Below are positions 1 to 1,934 of a stretch of DNA of 62,888 nucleotides, one piece after another (position 1 is the first letter of the stretch; every line of letters begins with the position of its first letter). The notes beneath the pieces are model-generated. The model had not been told where the DNA came from. It was given only the letters and a program-made list of their open reading frames with translations, and did not search any database. Position numbers and translations under genes: made by a program. Origin of the DNA: Weeksellaceae bacterium (lineage in GTDB: Bacteria > Bacteroidota > Bacteroidia > Flavobacteriales > Weeksellaceae); contig JAUNRT010000003.1 of the NCBI GenBank assembly GCA_030535475.1, positions 1-62,888 on the forward strand. The letters are read 5' to 3'.

Positions 1-55
1 GTGAAGAAAGCACAATCCTATGATTATTCCGTGTCTTAGCCGATTTAGATTTCAT
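1..55 (-). pseudogene. Tyrosine integrase, distal fragment; continues off the left edge and is separated from its N-terminal part by the TnpB element
   Basis: The minus-strand frame from 55 downwards reads MKSKSAKTRNNHRIVLSS and is open to the window edge. An ..RNN.. block after the N-terminal arm-binding region resembles Bacteroidota integrases as I remember them. Deleting 56-1313 (1258 bp, 1 mod 3) joins it in frame to the 1296-1814 fragment. Confidence 0.4.
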
Positions 56-74
56 AATATTGGGAGCAAGGAAA

Positions 75-97
75 CCCCTTCGCCTTTAGGCAAGGGG
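75..97 (+). repeat. Left-end subterminal hairpin of the TnpB element
   Basis: CCCCTTcGCC-TTTA-GGCaAGGGG. It starts about 19 nt inside the proposed left boundary, a spacing typical of IS608-like left ends. Confidence 0.55.
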
Positions 98-180
98 AGG
101 AATTGCCCCAGATTCCCTCTTTTGTTAATAATTAATCTTATGTATTTTCTCATATCAGAAAATAATTGTATCTTTACAGT

Positions 181-1275
181 ATGAAATTGACGTTGAAAAT
201 CAAACTTCTTCCAACCGCTGAACAGGCTGAATTGCTTCTCGAAACCATTCGGGAAACCAATGTAGTCTGTAACGCCATTTCGGATGTTGCTTGGTCTAAA
301 CGTATCTTTAACAATTTCAAACTCCATCACGAAGTTTACCATGTCTATAAGTCCACATTCAAACTTTCTTCCCAAATGCTTATACGCTCTGTTGCAAAGG
401 TTGCGGATGCTTATAAGTTGGATAAGAAAGGTAAACGTACTTTCAGACCTCTTGGCTCTATTGCTTACGATAGCCGTATTATGACTTACAAGCCCAACAA
501 TGTCGTTTCCTTGTGGTGCATTGGCGGTAGGCAGAAGATTAATTTTGTCTGCCATAATCCTGATTATCTGCCCTACATTAAAGGAGAAGCTGACTTGGTT
601 TACAAAAAAGGTAAATTCTATCTGTTTCAAACCGTTGATGTTCCCGAACAAGACATTGATGATATTGAATCGTTTATCGGTGTGGATTTCGGTCTTCACG
701 ATATTGTAGTTACCTCTGATGGTGTTAAACATTCTGCCGATTGGATTAATTCTTATCGGGAGCAAAGACAAAAAGTTCGTAGTTCTATTCAAAGCAAAGG
801 CACACGAAGTTCTAAACGACTTCTGAAACGGCTCTCTGGCAAGGAAAGAACAACGGCTACCATAATCAACCACACTATTGCAAAAAGCATTGTAAATTCT
901 GCTAAAGAACAAGGTAAAGGCATTTCGATTGAGGACTTGACTAATATCCGCTTTACTTCCAAAAGACGAAACAAAAAGTTTAGGACTAAACTTGGTCGTT
1001 GGTCTTTCGGGCAGCTGCGTTCTTTCCTTACTTACAAGTCTGCTTTGAATGGTGTTAAATTGGTTGCCGTAGAACCTCGTTACACTTCTCAAACTTGTTC
1101 CTCCTGTTTCCACATTGGAAAAAGGACTAACAAAGTGTTTAAGTGCACAAACCACAAATGCAAAGTTGATGTTGTTGATGCAGACTTTAACGCTGCTCAA
1201 AACATTTCTTTGTTGGGGGAAACCGTAAACCTCCCCGAAAGATGCGATATGTACAGTTGTTCTGTGCATTATTGA
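181..1275 (+). CDS. tnpB: TnpB/OrfB RNA-guided nuclease (IS605 OrfB family)
   Basis: Split RuvC motifs are present: GVDFG (D), ISIEDL (E) and DADFNAAQNI (D). A zinc-finger pattern CSSC...CTNHKC is also present. The N-terminus MKLTLKIKLLPT is typical. The ATG at 181 is preferred over the TTG at 166. Confidence 0.93.
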   Translation: MKLTLKIKLLPTAEQAELLLETIRETNVVCNAISDVAWSKRIFNNFKLHHEVYHVYKSTFKLSSQMLIRSVAKVADAYKLDKKGKRTFRPLGSIAYDSRIMTYKPNNVVSLWCIGGRQKINFVCHNPDYLPYIKGEADLVYKKGKFYLFQTVDVPEQDIDDIESFIGVDFGLHDIVVTSDGVKHSADWINSYREQRQKVRSSIQSKGTRSSKRLLKRLSGKERTTATIINHTIAKSIVNSAKEQGKGISIEDLTNIRFTSKRRNKKFRTKLGRWSFGQLRSFLTYKSALNGVKLVAVEPRYTSQTCSSCFHIGKRTNKVFKCTNHKCKVDVVDADFNAAQNISLLGETVNLPERCDMYSCSVHY

Positions 1276-1284
1276 TGTCTAAAG

Positions 1285-1308
1285 CCCCGATGCCTTTAGG
1301 CTCGTGGG
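1285..1308 (+). repeat. Right-end subterminal hairpin of the TnpB element (likely part of the omega-RNA scaffold)
   Basis: CCCCGAtGCC-TTTA-GGCtCGtGGG has the same apex as the left-end hairpin and lies just after the tnpB stop codon. Confidence 0.55.
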
Positions 1309-1814
1309 TAGTTTACTAATTCGTTTAAATATTCCAAAACGTGTCGGCGTTGGAGGTCTTCAATGTTCTGAAAATCCAACCCTTTTGCGGCACACCAACG
1401 TAGGAACTGACTTAGTTTCTGCTCATAATCCCCAGCGGTTGTAGCGGTAAGTGATTTTTGTTTTATCTCCAATGCCCATGTCAAGGCAGATTTTACGGTA
1501 TAAGTATCTTTAGCATTCGGGTATGGAGAATGACCTTGATGCAGTAACATTAGTAAATTTTTCTGTAAAAGTTTAAGTTCCTTCAATCTGGTTTTTACAT
1601 CTTTTTCAGATTGATTGAGAAGATAAATGTTTTGTTGGCGTTCGAGCTTATCGGTTTGTGGGTTTCTATATTTGTAGTACACATACCACCGTTTTGAGGT
1701 ATCCAAATTGGCACCACCAGTATAGATTTTCGGGATTGAAAAATGTTTTTTATTTTTCCTCAAATGGTGTTCAAATTGGTGTTCAACTCTTAGTAAATCC
1801 AATATTTTATCCAT
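1296..1814 (-). pseudogene. Tyrosine (phage-type) integrase, N-terminal fragment truncated by the TnpB insertion
   Basis: These 172 aa cover only the N-terminal arm-binding/SAM-like region (RWYVYYKYRNP.., ..HVLEYLNELV). The catalytic domain is missing. The gene starts 47 nt from the 3' end of the tRNA, a classic island-integrase position. Confidence 0.7.
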
Positions 1815-1860
1815 AAAAAAATCGGTGTAAAACGCTATTTATCACCGATTTAATACACAG

Positions 1861-1934
1861 TAGCGAAGACGGGAATTGAACCCGTGACCTCAGGGTTATG
1901 AATCCTGCGCTCTAACCATCTGAGCTACCTCGCC
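1861..1934 (-). tRNA. tRNA-Met (anticodon CAT); a lysidine-modified tRNA-Ile2 cannot be excluded
   Basis: The reverse complement GGCGAGGTAGCTCAGATGGTTAGAGCGCAGGATTCATAACCCTGAGGTCACGGGTTCAATTCCCGTCTTCGCTA folds as a 74-nt cloverleaf. It has a 7-bp acceptor stem, GCTC/GAGC D stem, TTCATAA anticodon loop and ACGGG/CCCGT T stem with a TTCAATT loop. Confidence 0.9.

Follow-up and report, generated by a model that had tools for sequence, protein, structure and literature searches.

What interrupts the tyrosine-integrase gene that lies just past a tRNA-Met gene at the start of contig C6 of a Weeksellaceae bacterium, and what has the interruption done to that gene and to any mobile island that it may have served? 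The window, meaning the whole stretch of DNA that was analysed, comprises bases 1-62888 of this contig (62,888 nucleotides), base 1 being the contig start; the assembly examined is 96%-complete and has 132 contigs with 264 contig ends. A sequence-only reading of the window had proposed that a TnpB-only element of the IS200/IS605 type interrupts the integrase gene, and the open reading frame (ORF), tnpB and the tRNA were all found in place. Our analysis makes it very probable that a tnpB-only IS200/IS605 element (56-1316, plus strand) inserted immediately 3' of the pentanucleotide TTCAT, splitting a gene for an integrase of about 400 amino acids downstream of tRNA-Met. The landing of an insertion sequence (IS) in the integrase gene of a mobile element is an ordinary, well-understood kind of event.

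Element ends and the split integrase gene

The ends of the element were taken from other genomes because no second copy was found in the assembly. The sequence-only reading had looked to further copies in the same genome to set the ends, and it was instead about 95 copies elsewhere, 15 related loci in species-representative genomes and 80 in metagenomes with TnpB identities of 54% to 92%, that fixed both of them. In these copies, which have unrelated flanks, the similarity on the left starts directly after a conserved TTCAT and on the right ends at ...GGGTAGTTTAC/T, position 1316. When the window was compared by BLASTN with the closest copies, L021 (88.6% DNA identity) and L029, only 51-1316 aligned. 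Contigs of the public run X1 were identical to the window at 50-111 and 1280-1316, diverging at 49/50 and 1316/1317 into several unrelated flanks. The shared ends and divergent flanks therefore place the element at 56-1316 (1261 bp) and its target, TTCAT, at 51-55; the 1258 bp proposed earlier (56-1313) fall short of the family-wide right end.

With the search anchored on the left-end core alone, TTCAT was located 4-9 nt upstream in 46 of 47 distinct left junctions. This proportion is the unbiased measure, the information content of 2 bits at TTCAT being a product of the search pattern. To the left of TTCAT the information content drops from 2 bits to below 0.6, save for a preference for T (0.81 bits) at the base just before, and to the right of the final C/T it does not reach 0.6 and is mostly under 0.4. 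No repeat is shared by the two flanks, ...ATTTCAT and TAATTCG..., so that there is no target-site duplication. Subterminal hairpins occur at both ends (75-97 and 1284-1309) and terminal inverted repeats are absent. The left end (56-180) combines an imperfect palindrome (75-97; CCCCTT.GCC-TTTA-GGC.AAGGGG) with an AT-rich leader ahead of tnpB, and the element, which carries no tnpA, is of the IS1341 type. It showed every defining feature that could be tested for a tnpB-only IS200/IS605 element and a TnpB/omega-RNA unit.

Excision of 56-1316 joins codon 166 of the integrase (L, 1319-1317) to the ATG at 55-53, giving ...EYLNEL followed by MKSKSAKTRNNHRIVLSS. The joined protein gives a gapless alignment with its closest homologue, P0001 (...EYLNGLLAKNAAKTRNNHRAVLSS...), and with 14 others, i.e. 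with 15 of 19 homologues, P0001-P0005 included, and in AKTRNNHRIVLSS 12 of 13 residues are identical in P0001. This match, together with junctions that coincide with the family-wide ends, is not due to chance. The earlier proposal that excision restores the frame thus stands, with its right boundary moved from 1313 to 1316. The valine of the fusion first given (...EYLNELV) is spurious, as its codon comes from the last three IS bases (TAC) and adds one extra residue; the true joint reads ...EYLNEL/MKSKS.... TTCAT was also considered as part of the element and rejected, removal of 51-1316 leading to E-L-I-stop. It is host-gene sequence, as expected for an IS200/IS605 target, and its complement supplies the ATG-AA of Met167-Lys168.

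On the minus strand, the integrase gene begins with codons 1-166 (1317-1814), which encode the N-terminal arm-type region and, to judge by the homologues, the first part of a SAM-like core-binding domain. The cut ORF then reads through into the IS for a short tail (1296-1316; V-N-Y-P-R-A-stop), making up the 172-aa ORF 1814..1296. Codons 167-184, in positions 1-55, align to AKTRNNHRAVLSS of P0001, and from there the gene runs off the contig start. The full-length relatives of the fragment have 397-458 aa, the best being P0001 (49% identity, E=1.6e-42), and in a comparison of the kind that the sequence-only reading had proposed, the repaired gene aligns gaplessly to tyrosine integrases of about 400 aa. 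The catalytic domain PF00589 is present in P0001, P0002 and P0005, and P0001 also passes for the SAM-like domains PF13495 and PF02899. The truncated protein scored 20.8 bits for PF13495 and 20.2 bits for PF02899, both under the cut-off because the IS cuts through the domain, and, for want of the catalytic half, the assignment to the integrase family is based on the homologues. By the same comparison, the break at codon 166/167 falls in the core-binding domain, upstream of the catalytic domain (about residue 215 onward in P0001). Because the split precedes the catalytic domain, the gene in its present form is predicted to be unable to make an active recombinase.

The tRNA-Met(CAT) gene, presumed to be the attL side of an island, occupies 1860-1934 on the minus strand according to ARAGORN (1861-1934 in Rfam), and the integrase ORF begins 45-46 nt beyond its 3' end on the same strand, slightly closer than the 47 nt given before. 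The spacer (1815-1859, minus strand) contains a terminator-like hairpin, in which 1849-1843 pairs with 1828-1822, and a run of seven T residues that abuts the integrase ATG, and therefore the start codon lies at the foot of the tRNA terminator. A GC-rich hairpin and T7 run directly abutting the ATG (TTTTTTTATG) were seen in all three tRNA-Met-linked loci (window 1815-1849, L002 1436-1500 and L003 1282-1327).

Two further observations concern copies of the element in public data. One contig of run X1 fuses window position 111 directly to 1280, omitting 1168 nt; it looks like a tnpB-less miniature derivative, made of the left and right ends of a near-identical element, and the run also contains several other copies, full or partial, in differing flanking contexts. 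In each of the locus pairs L054/L055 and L073/L074, the two members come from different metagenome records and agree in both the left and the right flank, so each pair represents a single insertion site that was found in more than one data set.

TnpB and its predicted guide RNA

The tnpB gene (181-1275, plus strand) is intact and encodes 364 aa with a match to PF07282 (2e-19) and weaker matches to OrfB_IS605 and HTH_OrfB. When aligned to solved Cas12f/TnpB structures, the protein keeps the RuvC D-E-D triad (GVDFG, IEDLT, DADFNAAQNIS) and a CxxC...CxxxxC zinc finger. The element appears to be intact, having hairpins at its ends, a structured omega-RNA and a tnpB whose RuvC triad is complete. 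The search returned 3319 TnpB relatives, of which the closest share 90-92% identity. The family is mostly found in metagenome-assembled genomes labelled Bacteroidota, and many of the relatives sit on contigs about 1.2 kb long whose ends lie close to the element.

Copies with 63-83% TnpB identity (L006, L007, L010, L016 and L018) come from metagenome-assembled genomes labelled Saccharibacteria, Mycobacterium, Thermoclostridium and Planctomycetaceae, and also Flavobacteriales and Chitinophagaceae. These scattered labels reflect either horizontal transfer over wide distances or contigs placed in the wrong bin. In most copies, the sequence TAnnTTTG lies directly ahead of the tnpB ATG (e.g. TATCTTTG and TATATTTG; L006-L010), and the copy in the window (160-180) reads TATCTTTAC. 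The motif matches the Bacteroidota -7 promoter consensus, which suggests that the TnpB family is adapted to Bacteroidota hosts.

In the scaffold of the predicted omega-RNA (1216-1316, plus strand), a stem-loop (1216-1236) is followed by a composite hairpin (1240-1280), the right-end hairpin (1284-1309) and the tail TAGTTTAC. The RNAalifold consensus for the last 240 nt of 73 distinct copies has 22 pairs, 15 of them with compensatory changes, and in the stem at 1216-1236 both sides have changed in about 30 sequences per pair. In the alignment, 96.7% of cells are paired, compared with 28-51% after a shift of the partner by 1-3 columns, and none of 500 shuffles reached the observed values; the contrast is somewhat inflated, the structure having been derived from the alignment on which it was tested. 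The single-sequence fold of the RNA in the window agrees with the consensus scaffold. In addition, an invariant AAAC within tnpB (1091-1094) could pair with an invariant GTTT in the right-end tail (1311-1314), 220 nt apart and with no covariation; the two might form a long-range omega-RNA contact or be part of cleavage-site recognition by TnpA.

In characterised TnpB systems, the transposon-associated motif (TAM) lies 5' of the left end, the guide is encoded just beyond the right end, and the donor joint consists of the TAM and the right-end flank; TTCAT is the TAM of ISGst5 (Meers et al. 2023, bioRxiv 10.1101/2023.03.14.532601). By analogy, TTCAT at 51-55 is the predicted TAM of the element in the window, and the guide is predicted to start at 1317, the first non-conserved base beyond the right end. 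A guide-encoding flank of 1317-1336 (plus strand; TAATTCGTTTAAATATTCCA) would follow if the guide has the length known from characterised TnpB systems. The predicted target of TnpB is accordingly placed, on the same analogy, in an uninterrupted integrase allele, which would read TTCAT followed by TAATTCGTTT....

Taken as a whole, the locus offers a sharply bounded and seemingly intact example of a TnpB-only IS family that is very abundant. With a defined TAM, fixed ends and an omega-RNA backed by covariation, it could be useful for annotation and as a candidate compact nuclease.

Mobilisation, a possible island and the state of the population

The element, non-autonomous and tnpB-only, probably entered the integrase gene by the single-strand 'peel-and-paste' route of the IS200/IS605 family. 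After insertion, the guide of the omega-RNA would be the adjoining integrase sequence, and TnpB with its omega-RNA would cleave any uninterrupted copy of the integrase (TTCAT, then TAATTCGTTTAAATAT...); such cutting would help the IS to be retained or copied. The left end and the start of tnpB are a mere 125 nt apart, and the element has no other ORF of relevant size. Among five other genomes carrying the TnpB family, three have Y1 transposases over the cut-off, and no Y1 gene of those genomes was found within 1.5 kb of the end motifs of the family that could mark an autonomous tnpA partner; among 60 related genomes, none has a TnpB of this family. As the element has no tnpA, and no Y1 gene was found in the assembly or near the end motifs elsewhere, mobilisation in trans is assumed. 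In genome G062 (L106, minus strand 39, 933, 2207 and 3139), a Y1 transposase gene is surrounded by three to four copies of a 26-nt motif (ATCATTGAATATTGGTAGCAAGAAAC). The motif weakly resembles the left end of the family and could be part of a repeat array or of an autonomous element that is related.

The sequence-only reading had also placed an island to the left of the window, and relatives of the integrase bear on this. In the 60 related genomes there are three homologues, all distant (34-37% identity). Those of G040 and G021 start 65-110 nt past tRNA-Met(CAT), behind a hairpin and T-run, i.e. the linkage of this integrase family to tRNA-Met was directly observed. In G021, an 11.2-kb island sits at tRNA-Met (L103:124-11420; G021:C1, about 535.4-546.7 kb), between the two copies of a 50-nt attL/attR repeat that differ by one mismatch. 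The repeat spans the anticodon loop to 6 nt beyond the tRNA end and has its second copy 11.2 kb downstream. The cargo consists of the integrase, HsdM, RhuM, HsdS, an AAA_13 protein and HsdR; in this type I restriction-modification island, the RhuM and AAA_13 genes are interspersed among hsdM, hsdS and hsdR. A tRNA-linked island to the left of the window is supported by this analogy, with the proviso that G021 and G040 show what the integrase family does, not what adjoins the window on its left. That such an island has been 'locked in place' by the insertion is conjecture.

Several negative results weigh against our reading that an IS has split the integrase gene of a tRNA-linked island. The distal part of the integrase is visible for 18 codons only, and its C-terminal half was not found in the 132-contig assembly by tblastn with P0001, P0002 and P0005. 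Neither the island nor attR, a repeat of the 3' part of tRNA-Met, was found in the same assembly, which may lack them. The assembly also had no other copies of window 1-55 and 1317-1371, and no Y1 TnpA (PF01797) was found anywhere in it. Among 5.8 billion proteins there was no intact integrase allele above 49% identity, and therefore the empty site is inferred from the joined sequence and not observed. The left flank of the element, searched as a codon-degenerate 53-nt pattern, gave no matches in JGI metagenome contigs and IMG/VR, and the N-terminal fragment had no relative in IMG/VR. No Rfam omega-RNA family matches the RNA of the element, and none of the public sequencing runs contained more than 6% of the words of the locus.

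Some of these absences could mean that the IS landed in what was by then no more than a decayed integrase remnant, left behind by an island that had been lost or degraded, in which case nothing was inactivated and there is no mobile island to the left. The few codons left of the IS, and the lack of a C-terminal half, attR and island contig in the assembly, would fit such a remnant. However, both visible pieces of the integrase (166 and 18 codons) are open, stop-free, well conserved and gapless against the homologues, and islands often escape binning, 38 of the 264 contig ends having a partner in the bin. We therefore regard a remnant as improbable. The island contig is probably unbinned, and the missing attR would then be an absence from the data rather than a demonstrated absence. 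One match on contig C97 was considered as attR and rejected, being the T-arm of a tRNA-Thr. The whole assembly (G000) contains a single tRNA with a CAT anticodon across its 132 contigs, as detected by ARAGORN. Bacteria need three such tRNAs (initiator, elongator and Ile2), so the 96%-complete bin lacks some tRNA loci. Another explanation, that the IS was joined to the integrase gene by a chimeric mis-assembly, could draw on the element family being common in metagenomes, often on contigs of about 1.2 kb, but both junctions lie exactly at the canonical ends of the family and jointly restore a gapless integrase frame, as a chimera would not, and this explanation is hardly credible.

With a genuine insertion into the integrase gene as the preferred reading, a further matter is whether all cells of the sampled population carry it. 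In the assembly, 19 contig pairs share an overlap of exactly 55 nt, while the 20 other k values tested gave no such pairs, and the assembly graph therefore used k=55. Contig C6 starts exactly 55 nt before the left junction, so that its first k-mer contains flank alone and the IS begins with the base after it. This start fits a graph branch at the junction, most simply caused by reads from cells with an empty site, and hints that the insertion is polymorphic, for which we see about even odds. The insertion could also be fixed, with the contig start being a coincidence or an assembly dead end. The contig is unbroken at the right junction (1317-1371), contrary to a simple two-allele bubble, and no contig with the empty joint is in the bin. 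Against this, the offset equals the k of the assembler exactly, for which the chance at a random break within the gene is about 1 in several hundred, and path-based contig building with overlap trimming can yield such a one-sided break. We favour a fixed insertion somewhat less than polymorphism. The contigs of run X1 that match the locus are relatives of the IS and tRNA genes of other organisms and are uninformative on filled versus empty alleles.

It is unlikely, although slightly less so than a decayed remnant, that the insertion is polymorphic and that TnpB acts as a homing drive, turning intact copies of the tRNA-Met island integrase-dead and immobilised. If so, a selfish nuclease would anchor a mobile island, possibly one for defence, in the host genome, and if filled and empty alleles co-occurred in reads, homing of TnpB into an island integrase would be directly observable in nature.

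Comparison with known systems

The TnpB of the window is only distantly related to that of ISDra2 (E=4e-5) and is closer to Cas12f-like and TnpB structures (E=2e-19). The element also differs from known TnpB systems in that its RNA is without an Rfam match and that no tnpA-bearing partner with the same ends was found. In other respects it resembles the IS1341-group elements of the IS200/IS605 family and TnpB/omega-RNA systems such as ISDra2 and ISGst, which likewise have a single tnpB with the RuvC D-E-D triad and a zinc finger. As in the IS1341 group, there are subterminal imperfect palindromes, no inverted terminal repeats and no target duplication, and the insertion is 3' of a conserved pentanucleotide, here TTCAT. 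As in TnpB/omega-RNA systems, a structured RNA is predicted to overlap the 3' end of tnpB as well as the right end, and its guide would lie beyond the element.

Compared with the island of G021, the integrase of the window is interrupted, the cargo and attR are outside the visible sequence, and the identity to the integrases of these relatives is 34-37%. The arrangement resembles that of tRNA-linked islands with a Bacteroidota-type tyrosine integrase, such as the one in G021: a hairpin and T-run follow tRNA-Met, the integrase gene begins at a distance of 45-110 nt from the tRNA 3' end, and the protein has the same N-terminal architecture as the integrase in the window.

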